From: Candidatus Saccharimonadia bacterium
Lineage (GTDB): Bacteria > Patescibacteriota > Saccharimonadia > UBA4664
NCBI GenBank assembly: GCA_041743505.1
Contig: JBGTMQ010000017.1
Location: forward strand, 15,680 to 79,679
Reading direction: 5' to 3'
Length of the DNA stretch: 64,000 nt
Made by a program: the position numbers and the translations under genes
The notes under the pieces: generated by a model
Seen by the model: only the letters and a program-made list of their open reading frames with translations
What the model was told of the DNA's origin: nothing
The model's database searches: none
In this document: piece after piece, positions 19,602-52,528 of the stretch
How the letters are laid out: every line of letters starts with the position of its first letter
How positions within the stretch are numbered: the first letter of the stretch is position 1

Positions 19602-21704
19602 CTATACCTCGTTAATAACCGGCAAGATCATCGGATTACGCTTGGTCTTGGAATACAGCAAGTCACCTATTTCATCCCGTAGCTTAAGCTTAAACTTAGA
19701 CCAGTCAGTCGGCTCAGACGTATTACGCTTCTCAAAGGCTTTACGGACTTCAGTCCGGGCCTTATTAATCAGCTCCTCATTCTCCTTCATGTAGATAAAC
19801 CCGCGGCTAATAATATCCGGACTCGAAATCAACCGGCCGGTCTTGCGGCTAACCGTCGCAATGATCATAAATACACCGTCACCTGCCATCGCCAGCCGGT
19901 CGCGCAACACTACACCTTCTACGTCTCCCACGCCAGCTCCATCGACCATTACCATACCGGCCGGCACGCGCTGGCCTTTCTGGGCTCGATTCGGAGTTAA
20001 TTCAAGCACGTCACCATTATCCATCACAAAAACATTGGCCTGAGGTACACCATTTTCGATAGCAATCTCGGCATTATAAACCAAGTGGTGAAACTCGCCA
20101 TGAATTGGCATATAATACTTGGGCTTAATAAGACTAATGAGCTCGGCGGCATCATCACGCTTAGCATGGCCACCCACATGAACCGGCCCATGACCCCGCA
20201 GCCCCTCGGTCATCCGGGCAAAGACGCTGGCGCCCTCGCGCATGAGGTTGTCAATAAGACCCACCACAGACTTCTCATTGCCAGGTATCACGCTCGAACT
20301 AAAGATAACCGTATCACCTGGCTTAATCTTGACGCTCTGATGATCACCAGTCGACATACGCACGAGTGCTGCGTTCTCCTCGCCCTGGGAACCCGTACAC
20401 AGCACCACTATCTGGTTATCCGGCAAGGAAGCGATATCCTGAGCCTTTACCATAAGGCCCTGCGGCACCCGCAGGTAACCCATCTTAACGCAAAGCTCGA
20501 TCGTGGAGAGCATAGATCGGCCCACCACCGCTAACCGCCGGCCCGTTTTAGCCGTAGCATCTATAATCAGTTGAACACGCGTAATAGAACTTGAAAATGT
20601 AGAGATAATAATGCGCCCATTGGCCCGCCCATAGAGGTCGTGAATGGTCGGCTCAACCAATCGCTCGCTACCACCGCGGCCGGGCTGGTCACAGCTAGTA
20701 GAGTCGCTCATGAGCAGCAGTACGCCCTCGGCAGCAATCTCACCCAAGCGGGGCATATCCATCATCTTGCCATCAAGCGGGTCGGGGTCAAGACGCCAGT
20801 CGCCGGTATCTATGATAATTCCAGCCGGCGTCCGCAACACTACGGCAGTAGAATCCGCAATCGTATGAGTTACCCGCACCAGTTCAATATTAAAACTGCC
20901 AAGCTGCACCCGTTCATGCTTATCGGGATCAAGTACCACATACTGAGGCGTATGAATCTTAAATTCCTCGATCTGTTTTGCAACCATACCCAAACTGAGA
21001 CGCGAGCCGTATATCGGCACAGGAAACTTTGGGATCATGTAGCCGGCAGCCCCAATATGGTCCATATGCCCATGAGTAATCACGATTCCGCGAACCTTAT
21101 GACGGTTGCGTTCAAGATAGGTGACGTCCGGGATAATATAGTCGACACCCGGCTGCTTAGCCTCCGGAAAGCCGAAGCCCATATCGAGAATCACAATGTC
21201 GTTACCATACTCAACGGCCATCATATTCTTCCCAATCTCACCAAGACCGCCCAACGGGATAACCCGTATCATCGGCTCACGAGTAACCTGGTTGGCCGTC
21301 CCGCGGCCCTGGATGGCTGGCCGTACCTGGCTTTTCTTGCTCTGCTGAACGCCATCCGTGCCGTTAAAGACACTTTTGTTAACCGGCATCGTATCCAGCG
21401 CCGGGATCAAATCAGTGTGATTCGGTACCTGCTGCTGACCATTTCGCCGCCGGCCACCCCCACGGCCCCCGCCACCACCTCGGCCACCGCCGTTACCGCC
21501 ATTGTTATTGCCGCTACCCTTTTGTGGCCTCGGCTGGGCCAATTTTGGCCCAGGTACACCCTCAGACACCGGTCGGTTCGGGTCCTTAGTCACGGCCGGC
21601 TTTTGAAACCGCGGCGGGCGCGGTGGTCGCTGCGGCCGGTTATTAGGCCGGGCCGAACCTGGCTGAGGAGTATTTGAATTGTTATTGTTATTATTAGGCT
21701 CCAT
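19602..21704 (-). CDS. rnj: ribonuclease J (metallo-beta-lactamase/beta-CASP RNase) with an N-terminal low-complexity extension of about 130 aa (Asn/Pro/Gly/Arg-rich)
   Basis: HGHMDHIG zinc motif, beta-CASP region and C-terminal domain; N-terminus MEPNNNNNNSNTPQ...GGGRGGGGGRGGGRRR. Confidence 0.9.
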   Translation of the reverse strand: MEPNNNNNNSNTPQPGSARPNNRPQRPPRPPRFQKPAVTKDPNRPVSEGVPGPKLAQPRPQKGSGNNNGGNGGGRGGGGGRGGGRRRNGQQQVPNHTDLIPALDTMPVNKSVFNGTDGVQQSKKSQVRPAIQGRGTANQVTREPMIRVIPLGGLGEIGKNMMAVEYGNDIVILDMGFGFPEAKQPGVDYIIPDVTYLERNRHKVRGIVITHGHMDHIGAAGYMIPKFPVPIYGSRLSLGMVAKQIEEFKIHTPQYVVLDPDKHERVQLGSFNIELVRVTHTIADSTAVVLRTPAGIIIDTGDWRLDPDPLDGKMMDMPRLGEIAAEGVLLLMSDSTSCDQPGRGGSERLVEPTIHDLYGRANGRIIISTFSSSITRVQLIIDATAKTGRRLAVVGRSMLSTIELCVKMGYLRVPQGLMVKAQDIASLPDNQIVVLCTGSQGEENAALVRMSTGDHQSVKIKPGDTVIFSSSVIPGNEKSVVGLIDNLMREGASVFARMTEGLRGHGPVHVGGHAKRDDAAELISLIKPKYYMPIHGEFHHLVYNAEIAIENGVPQANVFVMDNGDVLELTPNRAQKGQRVPAGMVMVDGAGVGDVEGVVLRDRLAMAGDGVFMIIATVSRKTGRLISSPDIISRGFIYMKENEELINKARTEVRKAFEKRNTSEPTDWSKFKLKLRDEIGDLLYSKTKRNPMILPVINEV

Positions 21705-22478: not shown

Positions 22479-24593
22479 CTAATCTTTTTTATTAACCGCT
22501 TTCATACTCAAGTTGAGTCGGCCCTGCCCATCGACCTCCATCAATTTTACACGAACCTCATCACCCACCTTCACCACGTCCTCCACCTTGGCCACTCGCT
22601 CATCGGCCAGCTGGCTGATATGCACTAGGCCGTCCTTGCCCGGCAAAATATTCACAAATGCCCCGAATTCCATCAGTTTCACCACTTTACCGGTATAAAT
22701 AGTGCCCACTTCAGGGTCTTCGGTCAGCCCGCGGATAATCTCGATCGCCCGCTCAGCTCCCTCAGAATCAGTCGAGGCAATCATCACCAGGCCCGAGTCC
22801 TCGATATCGATCTCCACGCCTGTCTCAGCGATAATTTTGTTAATAGTCTCGCCACCCTTACCAATGACCACCGCGATCTTCTCGGGGTTAATCATCAGCT
22901 TGGAGATCCGCGGCGCTAGCGGGCTCAAGTCCGGCCGTGGCTTATCCAGTACTTCTAACATCTTACTCAAGATGTGTGCCCGGCCAATCTTAGCCTGGGC
23001 CAGCGCATCCCGCATAATCGCAGGCGTAATACCCTTCACCTTAATGTCCATCTGCAGAGCCGTAATCCCATCCTCGGTCCCGGCTACCTTAAAGTCCATG
23101 TCGCCGGCAAAATCCTCGGCACCCTGGATATCGGTCAAGATAATGTAATTATCGCCCTCGCCCTTAATGAGTCCCATAGCAATACCCGACACCGGCTTCA
23201 ATATAGGCACACCGGCGTCCATCAAGCTCAACGTCGAGCCACACACGCTCGCCATCGAGCTCGAACCATTCTGGCTCAACACCTCGCTAACGGTCCTAAT
23301 CGTGTACGGAAAGTCCTCCACGGCCGGAATCACCGGCAATAGCGCCCGCTCGGCCAATGCCCCGTGACCAATCTCGCGGCGGCCCGGCGAGCGCATCGGC
23401 TTCACCTCACCGCTCGAGTAACCCGGCGCATTGTAGTGGTGCATGTACCGTTTGGTCGTATCCTCTTCCATCGTGTCTATCATCTGTGCATAGCTCGTAC
23501 TAGCAATCGTCGTCACGTTCAGCACCTGGGTTGTGCCACGAGTAAATAGCGCTGAGCCGTGTGCTCGCGGTAGCAATCCCGCCTGCCCCGAAATCGGCCG
23601 GACCTCAGTCGTCTTGCGCCCATCTGGACGCTCACCGTCCTCCACAATACCCCGCCGGATCTCATAATCAATCACCTTGCGAAAGGCCACTTCCATGTCG
23701 GCATGCTCGTAGTCATTCTCAAATTGCGCCAACACCTCTTTCTCGAGGTTCCGAATCGCATCATGACGTACATAATGGTCTTGATGCCGAATTGCCGGAC
23801 CCAACCGGTCCTTCAAAAATCCCCGGATAGCCTCAGCCAAGTCTTCGTCAGCCCGAAACAGCTCGTATTCCTTGGGCTTCGCACCCAGCTCTTTCACAAT
23901 CTTCTCTTGGAGATCAATCACCGGCTGAACCGCCTTATGCGCTAGCTCAATTGCGGCAATCATTGTCTCCTCGTCCACCTCCATAGCGCCGGCTTCCACC
24001 ATCATAATGGCGTCCCGCGTCGCGGCCACAGTCAAATCAAGCTTGGAGGTCTCCATTTGCTCAGCCGTCGGGAAAGCTACCAGCTCACCGTCTACCAAAC
24101 CAACCCGCACGCCCGCCACCGGCCCCTCAAATGGAGCTCCAGATAGCATCAACGCCGTCGACACCGCCGTCATGGCAATAATATTCGGCGCGTACACCTG
24201 GTCCGCACTCAAAACCATCGCCACCGACTGCACATCATGCCGGTAACCCTTAGGAAACAGTGGCCGCACCGGCCGGTCAATTAGCCGCGCACTCAGCGTG
24301 GCATGCTCACTCGCCCGGCCCTCGCGCTTAATAAACCGCGAGCCACTAATCTTACCAGCCGCATAAAACCGCTCTTCATAGTCAACCAACAATGGGAAAA
24401 AATCAATCCCGTCCCGCGGGTTATTGCTAACTACAGCCGTTCCCAGCACCATCGTGTCGCCATAGCGCACCGTCACGGCGCCATCGGCCAAAAAGGCCAT
24501 CTTGCCGGTTTCAATAGTCAACTCACGCCCACAGAACTCGGTCGTAAACTGCCGAATCGCACCCCCAAACGGGTGAATTATATCTTGCTTCAT
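22479..24593 (-). CDS. pnp: polyribonucleotide nucleotidyltransferase (PNPase)
   Basis: Two RNase PH domains, KH and C-terminal S1 domain (GKVVKLMEFGAFVNILPGKDGLVHISQL); 704 aa. Confidence 0.95.
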   Translation of the reverse strand: MKQDIIHPFGGAIRQFTTEFCGRELTIETGKMAFLADGAVTVRYGDTMVLGTAVVSNNPRDGIDFFPLLVDYEERFYAAGKISGSRFIKREGRASEHATLSARLIDRPVRPLFPKGYRHDVQSVAMVLSADQVYAPNIIAMTAVSTALMLSGAPFEGPVAGVRVGLVDGELVAFPTAEQMETSKLDLTVAATRDAIMMVEAGAMEVDEETMIAAIELAHKAVQPVIDLQEKIVKELGAKPKEYELFRADEDLAEAIRGFLKDRLGPAIRHQDHYVRHDAIRNLEKEVLAQFENDYEHADMEVAFRKVIDYEIRRGIVEDGERPDGRKTTEVRPISGQAGLLPRAHGSALFTRGTTQVLNVTTIASTSYAQMIDTMEEDTTKRYMHHYNAPGYSSGEVKPMRSPGRREIGHGALAERALLPVIPAVEDFPYTIRTVSEVLSQNGSSSMASVCGSTLSLMDAGVPILKPVSGIAMGLIKGEGDNYIILTDIQGAEDFAGDMDFKVAGTEDGITALQMDIKVKGITPAIMRDALAQAKIGRAHILSKMLEVLDKPRPDLSPLAPRISKLMINPEKIAVVIGKGGETINKIIAETGVEIDIEDSGLVMIASTDSEGAERAIEIIRGLTEDPEVGTIYTGKVVKLMEFGAFVNILPGKDGLVHISQLADERVAKVEDVVKVGDEVRVKLMEVDGQGRLNLSMKAVNKKD

Positions 24594-34475: not shown

Positions 34476-34533
34476 CCCCAAAACCTCGTTACGCTAATTA
34501 GTATAGGGCATCAACAAATTATCAACCCCAACA

Positions 34534-34562
34534 TTGACAAATCAATCAGGATATGCCAATAT
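34534..34562 (+). promoter_or_regulatory. cassette-1 promoter TTGACA-17-CAATAT (alternative TATAAT with a 20-nt spacer)
   Basis: Conserved with the cassette-2 promoter TTGACA-17-TAAAAT; followed by the conserved leader GATATCCG...TCGGACATCGCA..CCGACAAATCACCCGAT-ATG. Confidence 0.5.
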
Positions 34563-34610
34563 AATAATGATATCCGGTTTTCGGACATCGCACCCGACAA
34601 ATCACCCGAT

Positions 34611-34928
34611 ATGATCCTGGAGGTCATGGTGAACGCTCAAACCGATGTATCGGGCAGCTCTACAACCAAGAGCCAGCCCAAACCAGTGTACAAAGCCAGT
34701 ATCTGCTCCTGGGCCGTCGTATTCTGGATGGTGCTGTTATTGGTCAGCTCCCTCACAATCGACCAATATCTCGCCCTCTACGTGTGGCTGGCAACCGGTA
34801 TTGTATTCCTCTACACAACCGGCCTGTGTGTGATAATCATCAGACACATCGACTTCCGCTCGCAGTACCCAGTCACCAGCTCACCTGCGACAGAGCCGCC
34901 GGCCTCAACAACCACCACGGAAAGCTAA
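34611..34928 (+). CDS. small membrane protein, cassette 1 (MILEVMVNAQT..., 3 TM)
   Basis: In frame with ORF-track entry 34194..34928, whose N-terminal part is antisense to fpg; the N-terminus MILE(V/S)(M/I)V(N/T)A is shared with the cassette-2 ORF. Confidence 0.45.
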   Translation: MILEVMVNAQTDVSGSSTTKSQPKPVYKASICSWAVVFWMVLLLVSSLTIDQYLALYVWLATGIVFLYTTGLCVIIIRHIDFRSQYPVTSSPATEPPASTTTTES

Positions 34929-35008
34929 TCTCAGCCTCACAGGCAAGCGGCCCAAGAAACCTGACCGGGACATCCCGCATCAGTCCGCTTGCCTCCGGGT
35001 GATTTGTC

Positions 35009-35066
35009 GGTACCTTAGTCAAATGTATATTTTGGCCTGACGAGTCCTAAAGGACGAAAAGGTACC
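35009..35066 (+). ncRNA. type-III hammerhead self-cleaving ribozyme, copy 1 (predicted cleavage after A35017)
   Basis: GGUACCUUA|GUCAAA-UGUAUAU-UUUGGC-CUGACGA-GUCC-UAAA-GGAC-GAAA-AGGUACC. Conserved core C3U4G5A6N7G8A9 and G12A13A14 present; stems I (6 bp), II (4 bp, UAAA loop) and III (8 bp) all form; U16.1-A15.1 pair and H17=A. Confidence 0.8.
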
Positions 35067-35083
35067 ATTCACAGCCACAGAAG

Positions 35084-35112
35084 TTGACAAATCAAACAGC
35101 TTGTGCTAAAAT
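35084..35112 (+). promoter_or_regulatory. cassette-2 promoter TTGACA-17-TAAAAT
   Basis: Consensus -35, 17-nt spacer, good -10; lies 18 nt downstream of hammerhead copy 1. Confidence 0.55.
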
Positions 35113-35161
35113 AATAAAGATATCCGATCCTCGGACATCGCAACCCGACAAATCACCCGAT

Positions 35162-35482
35162 ATGATCCTGGAGAGCATCGTGACTGCCAAGACATCAAAA
35201 TCAGGCAACGATCAGCCGGCAAACAACCATGAAGGTAGGTTCTTCGTTGCAATGGGAATCGGCTTGTGGATTATGAGCGTCTTTCTGTACATAAGAACCG
35301 GCATGGACGAACTCAGCCTTGAGGCGCTCGTGAAAACCACCACCGGCTGCGTAGTTCTCGCATCAGGAGGGATTATCCTGGTCGTAATCGGCGCCGCTCT
35401 TGGGATACTGAGCCGCATCGACTCTGCGGTGGCAAAGTTGACCACAACAGACACCGCTCCCGCGCCCGACAGCAAAAGCTGA
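35162..35482 (+). CDS. small membrane protein, cassette 2 (MILESIVTAKT..., 3 TM)
   Basis: ORF-track entry 35084..35482 trimmed to the ATG homologous to cassette 1; the upstream in-frame part covers the promoter. Confidence 0.45.
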   Translation: MILESIVTAKTSKSGNDQPANNHEGRFFVAMGIGLWIMSVFLYIRTGMDELSLEALVKTTTGCVVLASGGIILVVIGAALGILSRIDSAVAKLTTTDTAPAPDSKS

Positions 35483-35514
35483 CACCGGACACACCCCGAC
35501 CAGGAGGTCATAGG

Positions 35515-35805
35515 ATGACTGCCCCAGCCACCACTCCCGGCAACAAGCAGCTCAATCAATGCGTATGGACGCTAAGCGTCGGAATAGGCCTGTTGGTCTT
35601 TAACACCATTCTCAGCGCAGCTGTCGCATTCCAGGTCGAAGATTGGCAGATGGCCATAAAGTTCCTGGGCATCCAGTTTAGCCTGCTTTCCCTCGGAGTT
35701 CTTCTGGTCACAATCGCCGCGGTTCTCTACTTCGCCGGTAAACAAGCCCCACTGGCGGCAGACACCGGGACGGTTCCTACACCAGCAGAGACCACCGGCG
35801 CCTAA
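35515..35805 (+). CDS. small membrane protein, second gene of cassette 2 (96 aa, 2-3 TM)
   Basis: AGGAGG RBS 7 nt before the ATG; hydrophobic. Confidence 0.45.
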   Translation: MTAPATTPGNKQLNQCVWTLSVGIGLLVFNTILSAAVAFQVEDWQMAIKFLGIQFSLLSLGVLLVTIAAVLYFAGKQAPLAADTGTVPTPAETTGA

Positions 35806-35886
35806 CCCTCCAACCACACAGGCAAGCGGCCCAAGAAACCTGACCGGGACATCCCGCATCAGTCCGCTTGCCTCCGGGTGATTTGT

Positions 35887-35944
35887 CGGTACCTTAGTCA
35901 AATGTATATTTTGGCCTGATGAGTCCTAAAGGACGAAAAGGTAC
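35887..35944 (+). ncRNA. type-III hammerhead self-cleaving ribozyme, copy 2 (predicted cleavage after A35895)
   Basis: Identical to copy 1 except U7 (canonical CUGAUGA); lies within a 130-nt block matching 34937-35066. Confidence 0.8.
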
Positions 35945-36059
35945 CCCTTCTAGCATATGACCAATATTAGTCCGCTCAGCAAGCAGTTTGCTCGCCATAC
36001 TGCCCAATGTTCTCGTCATGCCAAGACGACTACTGTATAGAAGTTAAGGAGAGGATCTT

Positions 36060-36278
36060 ATGGCAAGTGACAGTGAGAGTATTAGCCCGGCCGAAGCCCA
36101 AAAAGCGCTTGCAGGCATTAGTTTTCCTGCCGAAAAGCAGGACTTAGTGGAGCGCGCCAAGGAAAATGACGCTGATGAGCGCGTCATGGACTTCCTGGAG
36201 CGCATTCCAGATCGGGAATATGAAGGTGTAACCGATGTATCAAAAGAGATCGGTCGTCAAGACCGGGAATCGTCTTAA
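36060..36278 (+). CDS. DUF2795-family small protein
   Basis: ISPAEAQKALAGISFPAEKQDLVERAKENDADERVMDFLERIPDREYEGVTDV fits the DUF2795 pattern (Y/F-P-A-x-K-x-D-L...LP-D-R-x-Y); AAGGAGAGG RBS. Confidence 0.55.
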   Translation: MASDSESISPAEAQKALAGISFPAEKQDLVERAKENDADERVMDFLERIPDREYEGVTDVSKEIGRQDRESS

Positions 36279-36295
36279 ACAAAAAGTGCAGGTAC

Positions 36296-36336
36296 AAACA
36301 GGGCGGCCCTCCTAGGTCGCCCTGTTTTTTTGATAC
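36296..36336 (+). terminator. intrinsic terminator (AAACAGGGCGGCCCTCCTAGGTCGCCCTGTTT then TTTTTGAT)
   Basis: Long GC stem plus T-run right after the DUF2795 gene. Confidence 0.6.
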
Positions 36337-36382
36337 AATAAAAACAAATAAGCATTAGGACTTAGGAGCTAGAAGCACCACC

Positions 36383-52440: not shown

Positions 52441-52528
52441 TGGCGGAGGGAGAGGGATTCGAACCCTCGAGGGCTTGCACCCAACGCGCTTTCCAAGCGC
52501 GCGCCATAGGCCACTAGGCGACCCCTCC
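52441..52528 (-). tRNA. tRNA-Ser (anticodon GGA), encoded CCA
   Basis: Reverse complement GGAGGGGUCGCCUAGUGG...CUUGGAAAG...GGUUCGAAUCCCUCUCCCUCCGCCA: 7-bp acceptor stem, D-loop, anticodon loop with GGA, long variable arm, T-loop GTTCGAATC. Confidence 0.85.

Follow-up and report, generated by a model that had tools for sequence, protein, structure and literature searches.

Hammerhead ribozymes occur in bacterial and prophage genomes as clusters that flank single genes or short gene blocks, and in the account of Perreault et al. (2011, PMC3088659) they were proposed to cut long transcripts into gene-length mRNAs, in vitro cleavage being reported there for three arrays. End-to-end pairing of a bacterial mRNA is known from single genes. 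In Bacillus subtilis, a host that uses RNase J and RNase Y, a 14-base-pair (bp) interaction linking the 5' with the 3' untranslated region (UTR) of hbs mRNA was described as limiting ribonuclease cleavage and in this way affecting stability (Braun, Durand and Condon 2017, PMC5737220), and in Staphylococcus aureus the 3' UTR of icaR was described as pairing with the Shine-Dalgarno region (Ruiz de los Mozos et al. 2013, PMC3868564). Here we describe two gene cassettes in a stretch of 64,000 nucleotides (nt) from a Candidatus Saccharimonadia bacterium (assembly GCA_041743505.1, contig JBGTMQ010000017.1, positions 15,680 to 79,679 of the forward strand; hereafter the window, to which all coordinates refer). 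Each cassette ends in a type III hammerhead, and 15 nt of its 5' leader are complementary to the bases at the 5' flank of the ribozyme. On the comparative evidence given below, a helix at this fixed position, which would join the predicted 5' UTR to the final bases ahead of the cleavage site, is evolutionarily maintained in many unrelated cassettes.

The 15-mer CCGACAAATCACCCG was located on the + strand at 34594–34608 and 35145–35159, and its exact reverse complement CGGGTGATTTGTCGG on the same strand at 34996–35010 and 35875–35889; pattern search, a repeat finder and RNA folding agreed on all four helix strands, which in cassette 1 are CCGACAAAUCACCCG (5') and CGGGUGAUUUGUCGG (3'). The complementarity had been noticed in the original prediction, made from the letters alone, and it was borne out by the pattern search and the repeat finder; three of the four intervals given there were right and the last, placed at 35874–35888, was off by one. 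The helix is exactly 15 bp long, since the flanking bases C/T and A/C block its extension on either side, and its arms are separated by 387 nt in cassette 1 and 715 nt in cassette 2, matching the earlier estimates of ~390 and ~715 nt. Five matches to the 15-mer with at most two mismatches were found in the window against 0.19 expected, and none of 100 shuffles reached five. The 5' strand lies between the predicted promoter and the ribosome-binding site (RBS), and the 3' strand 68–70 nt past the stop codon. The –10 box of promoter 2 ends at 35112, 32 nt before the helix, and the likely transcription start site (TSS) is ~25 nt from the helix, the distance first predicted. The 3' strand finishes with GG (35009–10 and 35888–89), and these bases are at the same time the first two of stem III of the hammerhead, as had been claimed; the tail predicted between helix and cleavage site is 7 nt in both cassettes, again the figure given before. 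The 3' strand of unit 1 is also complementary to the leader of unit 2, the arms forming an inverted repeat.

That the pairing is found in both cassettes had been taken as a sign of preservation. It is present in each, but the 3' modules (34932–35066 and 35811–35945) are 98% identical and the 5' modules 82–93% identical by the repeat finder, which marks the cassettes as recent duplicates, so that the two copies of the helix are not independent evidence. Where the 5' modules differ, they do so at four sites (the spacer of the promoter, the 5' hairpin's loop, a single indel and the bases from RBS to start codon), while the 15-mer and the stem of the 5' hairpin are identical; the persistence of these two among diverged parts hints weakly at constraint.

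When the two processed transcripts were folded with ViennaRNA, all 15 pairs were present in the minimum-free-energy (MFE) as well as the centroid structure, at pair probabilities of 0.92–1.0, so the co-folding check proposed with the original prediction came out in favour of the helix (pair probability ~1). In the uncleaved cassette 1 RNA 13 helix pairs formed together with a full stem III, and in the uncleaved cassette 2 RNA the MFE fold contained all 15 pairs without a canonical hammerhead. Before cleavage the helix and the stacked stem III would make ~21 continuous bp in the window. The predicted cassette fold was a multibranched interior closed by the single 15-bp helix, not the rod of a circular RNA that had been suggested. 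The ribozyme was canonical in the MFE fold with 0, 15, 30 or 80 nt of upstream flank and the leader absent, so that a cleavage switch dependent on the leader, also part of the original prediction, finds no support in the thermodynamics. Nor does the leader strand abut the start codon as first described: the RBS motif CCWGGAGGTCAT lies 10 nt downstream of the helix, and the likely starts are ATG 34626 or GTG 34629 in cassette 1 and GTG 35180 in cassette 2. The motif CCTGGAG(G/A) follows the 5' strand in both cassettes and, because CCAGGAGGTCAT also precedes the internal start at 35515, is read as a ribosome-binding site. The ATG 2 nt past the 15-mer (34611 and 35162) is probably not a start codon.

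As in the clusters of Perreault et al. (PMC3088659), the hammerheads considered here are intergenic, on the coding strand, often in tandem and associated with changing cargo. The sections of that paper drawn on here make no mention of a leader pairing with the 5' flank of a ribozyme. Unlike those clusters, the window units lie among chromosomal housekeeping genes (polA, fpg), with no prophage by the annotated neighbours, and they carry their own promoter-like site and conserved UTR modules. Like the hbs interaction as described, the window helix is of similar length, would run from the leader to the 3' UTR of one mRNA and is found in an organism with RNase J; hbs, however, is one gene, with an interaction that partly overlaps an RNase Y site (PMC5737220), whereas the window represents a cassette family with a putative role of the helix in stability. 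The icaR duplex, by the published description, covers the RBS, blocks initiation and is cut by RNase III, whereas in the window the RBS (GGAGG at 34619–23 and GGAG at 35170–73) lies in both cases 10 nt beyond the helix, which adjoins a ribozyme. We know of no report that the hbs 3' end is made by a ribozyme, and it presumably comes from a terminator. In the processing stalks of 16S and 23S rRNA, which are RNase III substrates, flanking sequences pair to close off a long RNA; the window helix would likewise close an RNA from either side, but the stalks are non-coding, longer and without a ribozyme. Viroid-like, retrozyme and Obelisk-type RNAs with type III hammerheads are circular and rod-like and replicate as RNA or via reverse transcription. 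The type III hammerhead and the long-range pairing of a bounded unit are common to them and the window. In contrast to them, the window unit is encoded as DNA in a chromosome, contains open reading frames (ORFs) with an RBS, has a predicted fold that is not a rod, and possesses its own promoter-like site, with 11 of 12 consensus positions matched between hammerhead 1 and leader 2, where a viroid-like or retrozyme unit would have no promoter. An integron gene cassette was also considered. There, one imperfect inverted repeat (attC) marks the 3' end of a cassette that lacks a promoter and stands beside an integrase; the comparison was rejected, as the arms here flank the ORF on both sides, the cassettes carry promoters, and the neighbours are fpg, holA, a DUF2795 gene and polA. 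A full-text literature search, with coverage that was not exhaustive, returned no paper linking hammerheads with Saccharibacteria, Patescibacteria, the candidate phyla radiation or TM7. A clamp from leader to ribozyme, which the accounts of clustered hammerheads, hbs and icaR drawn on here do not describe, would apparently be an undescribed way to close a bacterial mRNA, and it combines two known kinds of element.

Hammerheads were then sampled by the ribozyme core and stem II alone, blind to the helix, about 195 in total. The genome sample comprised at least 120 loci, mostly from Patescibacteria (among the matches listed, ~50 were labelled Saccharibacteria or Saccharimonadia); together with 15 phage contigs and the window's own two ribozymes it made up a first set of 125 hammerheads. 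A further 100 metagenome loci (70 non-redundant) came from one stem III sub-family, picked by the stem III sequence, which adjoins the helix. For each hammerhead the 30 nt 5' of stem III were searched for their best gapless antiparallel match 80–1800 nt upstream, with the best parallel match, of identical composition, as the control; this gapless complementarity scoring replaced RNAduplex energies against shuffled flanks, which were too noisy. In the first set (n = 125; matching sites 80–1600 nt upstream), scores of at least 30 were reached by 24 antiparallel against 4 parallel matches and scores of at least 35 by 11 against 0. In the metagenome set (n = 70), the counts were 31 against 2 at scores of at least 28, and 25 against 0 at scores of at least 30. 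Some high scores in the first set (L121, L126 and L129) belonged to palindromic local hairpins before tandem phage hammerheads and not to long-range helices. The true long-range helices were 11–25 nt long, with the partner 0.4–1.7 kilobases (kb) upstream, and their sequences differed between loci (CCGCAGAUGUUG is one example), as in L010 (GACAAGGUAACAGGAA), L007 (UGACACCGCAGAUGUUG), L024 (ACCUAGUUUCUU) and L005 (AAUCUCUUUCUUCU), and in a large family with UGACAAGCAGAC; L064 held two cassettes with two different helices. Loci with a long-range helix were overwhelmingly labelled Saccharibacteria or Saccharimonadia.

The panhandle that had been predicted for the window proved stereotyped in these loci. 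Its 5' strand was found ~40 nt past the –10 box (median 40 nt, interquartile range 38–44, where a promoter was detectable), a sigma-70-like promoter being present upstream of the strand in 29 of 54 leaders but in only 1 of 54 control windows. Its 3' strand was placed 0–5 nt from stem III, the ends of 40 of the 42 distinct helices lying within –2 to +5 nt and most commonly at 1–2 nt. The longest ORF lay between the two strands in nearly all cassettes and ended ~30–290 nt (mostly 30–125) before the 3' strand. The cargo was unrelated, 59 proteins falling into 47 clusters, and by this comparison of sequences the UTR architecture, not the cargo, is the conserved part of the cassettes.

A local stem at the same place was also frequent. 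A stem of 8 bp or more whose end fell within –2 to +4 nt of stem III was seen in 50 of the 125 first-set hammerheads and, by the same criterion, in 8 of 125 control windows taken 200 nt upstream. With a looser definition (at least 7 bp), 57 had only a local stem, 18 only a long-range helix, 6 both and 44 neither. Patescibacteria outside the Saccharibacteria and phages mostly had the local hairpin, and many Saccharibacteria cassettes used the 5' leader instead. As the local stem was frequent where a long-range partner was absent, a helix at the stem III flank appears to be a common requirement. The phage contigs L121, L126 and L129 (IMG/VR) carried tandem type III hammerheads with a near-identical palindromic hairpin of ~20 nt (e.g. 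GGGAGUGUCUUCAAAGACACUCCC) 0–2 nt before each stem III.

Covariation in homologous cassettes had been named as a check of the original prediction. No sequence homologues of the window cassette were found: an exact protein look-up of the 96-amino-acid ORF gave no match, the hammerhead variant of the window (loop UAAA plus AGG) had 0 matches in the metagenome scan, and the window's own genome was not among the matches listed from the genome collection. An equivalent helix with compensatory changes was found in analogous cassettes. Thirty-five loci were anchored only on the conserved 7-mers TGACAAG (leader) and CTTGTCA (beside the ribozyme), and at distal positions 1, 5 and 6 the flanking, non-anchor bases paired with their same-locus partners more often than in every one of 500 permutations between loci. 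In the gapless alignment A2 (35 loci, a 14-bp helix, window excluded), 89% of cells were paired, compared with 32–48% when the partner was slid by 1–3 columns, and 7 of the 14 pairs were changed on both sides. Doubly changed cells numbered 36 against 12.7 ± 3.3 in shuffles, none of 500 reaching 36. All five measures exceeded every one of the 500 shuffles, counts which are not probabilities as the sequences are related. On adding the two window rows (alignment A1) the register was kept, and the window appeared as a member with the distal half of its helix replaced on both strands (GCAGAC to AUCACC and GUCUGC to GGUGAU); it has only GACAA in common with the related helices.

Each cassette is proposed to be a self-contained transcription unit of a Saccharibacteria-type chromosome, with the predicted order sigma-70-type promoter, 5' stem-loop, helix 5' strand, RBS, one or two small ORFs, 3'-UTR hairpin, helix 3' strand and hammerhead. 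The reading that we prefer, at a probability of roughly 0.55, is that the helix closes the ribozyme-cut mRNA, acting as a terminator hairpin would and tying the 3' end to the 5' UTR. The hammerhead would cut the nascent RNA, so that it, and not an intrinsic terminator, makes the 3' end of the mRNA, leaving in the window a 7-nt tail with a 2',3'-cyclic phosphate (5–9 nt across cassettes). The 15 bases 5' of the ribozyme would then pair with the leader ~25 nt from the 5' end, and the mature mRNA would be closed end to end. Because the helix is predicted to lie wholly in untranslated sequence, ribosomes on the ORF would leave it undisturbed. It would block 3'-to-5' exonucleases such as PNPase, and a 3' end tied to a 5' end with a protective stem-loop would offer less access to RNase J or to endonucleases. 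Among tested cases the hbs interaction is the closest precedent. Each unit has its own promoter-like site (canonical by scan for cassette 2 only), and its transcript would accordingly carry a 5' triphosphate. RNase J (19605–21704) and PNPase (22482–24593) are indeed encoded in the window, as first noted, both on the – strand and ~10–15 kb from the cassettes, and shielding from the two enzymes is plausible by analogy. We infer for the cassettes a stability effect, the TSS and ribozyme activity in vivo.

Several points weigh against this reading. The transcription starts, the cleavage in vivo and the helix are all predictions, and a 15-bp helix that closes a loop of 390–715 nt would face kinetic competition from local structure and from ribosomes at the initiation region close by. 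Among the first-set hammerheads, 44 of 125 had neither a long-range nor a local helix by the criteria used. G-U pairs numbered 9 against 14 A-C mismatches at the distal positions, and 8 against 3 among internal mismatches; with no clear G-U excess, the mismatch counts do not prove selection on the sense RNA over a DNA inverted repeat. The covariation comes from analogous, possibly homologous, cassettes of other Saccharibacteria, for which homology with the window is only arguable. Most of the related leader strands (L156–L255) are UUGACAAGCAGAC, which contains a perfect –35 hexamer with no –10 box after it, and the conservation of this sequence beyond what pairing needs hints at an additional or different function, for example as a protein-binding site.

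Other explanations place the purpose of the helix elsewhere. That it mainly serves the ribozyme, by stacking coaxially on stem III, insulating it from mispairing with the variable ORF and 3' UTR and allowing fast co-transcriptional cleavage, is possible though rather unlikely, and would be compatible with, not exclusive of, an mRNA closed by the helix. Of 42 helices, 40 adjoin stem III (–2 to +5 nt), other hammerheads have local hairpins at the same position, the cargo is highly variable, and stem III is just 3–7 bp in most related ribozymes, where stacking could matter; in the window, however, stem III has 8 bp and the ribozyme folds canonically without the leader in all contexts tested. A local hairpin would also be the simpler device, whereas the use of a partner 0.4–1.7 kb away, in every case close to the 5' end, suggests that this end is of importance. 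We find it distinctly improbable that the duplex is a site for a double-strand-specific factor, RNase III or a protein binding double-stranded RNA, that controls maturation or decay in the manner of the rRNA processing stalks or the icaR duplex. Conservation of the duplex sequence UUGACAAGCAG/CUGCUUGUCAA beyond the need for pairing, together with the ~21 continuous bp of helix and stem III in the window before cleavage, would suit such a factor, and the icaR duplex is given as an RNase III substrate (PMC3868564). The window helix differs except for GACAA, so a sequence-specific reader would not be shared, and no RNase III turned up when 16 of the 19 ORFs with 330 or more amino acids were scanned against Pfam, no search having been aimed at RNase III. 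Helices of 12–15 bp, moreover, are short for that enzyme. A translational brake that occludes the initiation region, as the icaR 3' UTR does with the Shine-Dalgarno sequence, is very unlikely. The window helix ends 10 nt upstream of GGAGG, inside the reach of the 30S footprint, but the RBS and the likely start codon are outside it; in most related cassettes ~10 to 140+ nt of leader separate the helix strand from the longest ORF, in many of them with a long hairpin, and with this extra leader occlusion of initiation would not be a shared feature.

Two further readings, a circular RNA and a repeat acting as DNA, are disfavoured by the promoter inside each unit and by arms locked to RNA landmarks. 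For a circle, read-through of the tandem array would be cut twice, and the ends of the 879-nt unit (5'-OH and 2',3'-cyclic phosphate) would be brought together by the helix and joined by an RtcB-type ligase or by the ribozyme itself, as in viroids or retrozymes. The hammerheads are 879 nt apart, and from the first of them up to 36296 no terminator-like site with a strong stem was found on the + strand; unit 1 has a 3' strand that could also pair with the unit 2 leader, and tandem hammerheads are common in related loci; Perreault et al. raised circular products for clustered bacterial hammerheads, none of which was detectable according to the text drawn on here (PMC3088659). Yet a promoter-like site stands between the upstream ribozyme and the leader, as it does for 29 of 54 related leaders, most helix-bearing cassettes had a single matching hammerhead in the fetched DNA, and no RtcB was found among the window proteins scanned. 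The helix, besides, would set the 3' end beside a point ~130 nt from the 5'-OH end and not beside that end itself, and the predicted fold is not rod-like. We therefore give a circle very little credence, and think it no less far-fetched that the 879-nt unit yields a circular translatable bacterial mRNA or an RNA intermediate that spreads the UTR modules to new genes, even if this would also explain identical modules around unrelated ORFs. It is likewise highly doubtful that the arms are an inverted repeat at the level of DNA and not an RNA helix, a mobile gene cassette using them as ends for recombination or transposition or as sites for protein binding. The identity of the 5' and 3' modules around unrelated ORFs, a polA-fpg interval that is a variable island among relatives, and G-U pairs without a clear excess over A-C mismatches would all agree with it. 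On the other hand, the 3' arm is locked within a few bases of stem III and the 5' arm lies inside the transcript at a fixed distance past the promoter; promoter and ribozyme would fall outside the element; the arms vary compensatorily between loci and have no common terminal sequence beyond GACAA, and no recombinase or transposase was found among the neighbouring genes scanned.

If the helix does close ribozyme-cut mRNAs, Saccharibacteria, a poorly understood and mostly uncultured phylum, and some other sampled loci would have a modular way of making and closing mRNA on dozens of unrelated genes, in which a ribozyme replaces the terminator and a helix between 5' UTR and 3' end replaces the terminator hairpin. 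Self-cleaving ribozymes in bacterial chromosomes would gain a concrete, testable job, which has been a matter of question ever since the 2011 description of clustered bacterial hammerheads, and end-to-end pairing of bacterial mRNAs, known for a few single genes (hbs, icaR), would extend to a conserved class. The 5' stem-loop, clamp and hammerhead would also be a compact natural part with which to insulate or stabilise synthetic transcripts. The analysis flags a conserved leader family (UUGACAAGCAGAC and neighbouring hairpins) that is below the gathering threshold of every Rfam family, the 17 related genome loci scanned giving tRNAs only at that threshold.

The two type III hammerheads of the window occupy 35009–35066 (core CUGACGAG...CGAAA; RF00008, 33.7 bits, E = 6e-5) and 35888–35945 (core CUGAUGAG...CGAAA; 35.8 bits, E = 1.6e-5) on the + strand, and both had a canonical MFE fold. 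The E-values apply to a 2-kb region, and both scores are below the RF00008 gathering threshold of 48.5 bits. In related Patescibacteria none of 19 hammerheads (17 loci scanned) reached that threshold, and the low scores in the window and its relatives indicated that the RF00008 model fits this lineage poorly. The hammerhead core (C3-U4-G5-A6-N7-G8-A9, G12-A13-A14, A15.1-U16.1) is complete in both ribozymes, CUGA(C/U)GAG...CGAAA-A, the sole core difference being at the free position 7. Stem III has 8 bp (GGUACCUU/AAGGUACC; in ribozyme 1, 35009–16 paired with 35059–66) and is the open stem. Stem I has 6 bp and a 7-nt loop, UGUAUAU, and stem II 4 bp (GUCC-UAAA-GGAC), on which the Rfam alignment and the MFE fold agreed. 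The cleavable NUH triplet is UUA, with cleavage predicted after A35017 and A35896. The pattern CTGANGAG-N(8–30)-CGAAA matched these two sites only in the whole window, the ribozymes being 879 nt apart.

Cassette 1 has a promoter-like region at 34534–34565 (+ strand), read from the sequence and from alignment with the promoter of cassette 2. Its –35 hexamer is TTGACA (34534–39), and the –10 candidates are CAATAT (34557–62; 17-nt spacer, TG before) and, alternatively, TATAAT (34560–65; 20-nt spacer); the region was absent from the output of the consensus scan, owing to its spacing or a weak –10 box. In cassette 2 the scan gave TTGACA-17 nt-TAAAAT, with TG before, at 35084–35112 (11 of 12 consensus positions). 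The 5'-terminal stem-loops, GATATCCG-GTTTT-CGGACATC at 34569–34589 and GATATCCG-ATCCT-CGGACATC at 35119–35139, were identified from the sequence and by hairpin scan; they differ in the loop only and begin about where transcription should start. The leader segment 34596–34604 (CCGACAAATCA) is a near-copy of the promoter –35 regions at 34534–34544 and 35084–35094 (TTGACAAATCA). A second promoter at the leader TTGACA was considered and rejected, there being no –10 box after it. Pairing of the bases 5' of the leader strand with bases 3' of the hammerhead was likewise rejected, none being found in the window.

In cassette 1 the RBS GGAGG (34619–23) and its ORF span 34619–34928, with a likely start at ATG 34626 or GTG 34629, a stop codon ending at 34928 and a product of ~100 amino acids. 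Cassette 2 contains two ORFs on the + strand, the first (35170–35482) with the RBS GGAG at 35170–73, a likely start at GTG 35180 and ~100 amino acids, and the second (35503–35805) with the RBS GGAGG at 35503–07, a start at ATG 35515 and 96 amino acids. The hydrophobic stretches of the three products (~100 amino acids) suggested by eye two membrane-spanning segments each; no Pfam family was found for them, and no similarity to one another or to the small membrane ORFs of a syntenic relative. Local 3'-UTR hairpins, detected as inverted repeats and in the folds, are at 34941–34994 (arms AGGCAAGCGG and CCGCUUGCCU) and 35820–35873; their stems are of 10 bp, and each ends 1 nt before the 3' strand of the helix.

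Downstream of the cassettes, annotation of the window ORFs gave a DUF2795 gene at 36060–36278 (+ strand), and the first strong intrinsic terminator on that strand was found by terminator scan at 36296–36327. From hammerhead 1 to 36296 the scan gave no terminator-like site with a strong stem on the + strand; other matches on this strand, inside the ORF of cassette 1 and beyond 36296, had stems of 5–6 pairs only. With no strong terminator there, the ribozymes probably separate the cassette RNAs from one another and from the DUF2795 mRNA. Between hammerhead 2 and the DUF2795 gene no promoter-like site was seen on the + strand beyond three weak matches (9/12). The DUF2795 gene may be expressed by read-through from the cassette, with a 5'-OH end left by the ribozyme. 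The neighbours are the chromosomal housekeeping genes fpg, holA, rpsT and polA, and a primary sigma factor is also encoded in the window. By its closest Fpg proteins and by the relatives of its hammerheads the window belongs to Saccharibacteria. A tRNA with a long variable arm (52444–52528, – strand, 50.3 bits) was the sole RNA of the window above an Rfam gathering threshold.

The cassettes lie in a variable island (34482–36382) between fpg and a conserved gene for a 115-amino-acid membrane protein that adjoins polA. Six relatives (L136, L142, L148, L150, L152 and L154; Fpg 72–79% identical) each had different small genes in this interval, including membrane-protein-like ORFs, PadR and NTP_transf_9, and a scan by Rfam E-value detected no hammerhead in their polA-fpg intervals. 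Of the relatives in which small ORFs resembling membrane proteins occupy the syntenic site, the nearest was L136, with three such ORFs in two transcription units, each of which ends in an ordinary terminator hairpin without a hammerhead. Two Logan contigs, L146 and L147 (SRR28170471 and SRR28170470), encoded an Fpg identical to that of the window, presumably from the same organism, and ended 146 nt upstream of fpg. The cassette region starts at about this point, and its duplicated modules may therefore break assemblies.

Single Saccharibacteria bins contained several hammerhead loci on different contigs (L071, L084, L093 and L110; L001 and L073). With at least four hammerhead loci in the bin SRP200132_co1_536, the architecture seems to be used repeatedly within one genome. 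Other bins (L010, L078, L041, L051, L055 and others) were labelled 'uncultured Gammaproteobacteria', while their hammerheads were of the Patescibacteria type, and the labels may be wrong; two of these contigs carried a long-range helix, and one was 835 kb long.

The related loci L161–L253 (e.g. L197, L198, L215 and L253) had in common a long and structured 5' UTR, missing from the window, at 0–170 nt after the leader strand. Its order was a 5' stem-loop CUUUUGUUGAG...CUCCAAAAG, the helix strand and a long hairpin CACAAGAUGAG...CCUCAUCUUGUGU, followed by GGAAxACACACGCUCGCU...GCGAGAGGCA and then the RBS. A CUCAUC in the 5' UTR of related loci is complementary to the GAUGAG of the hammerhead core.

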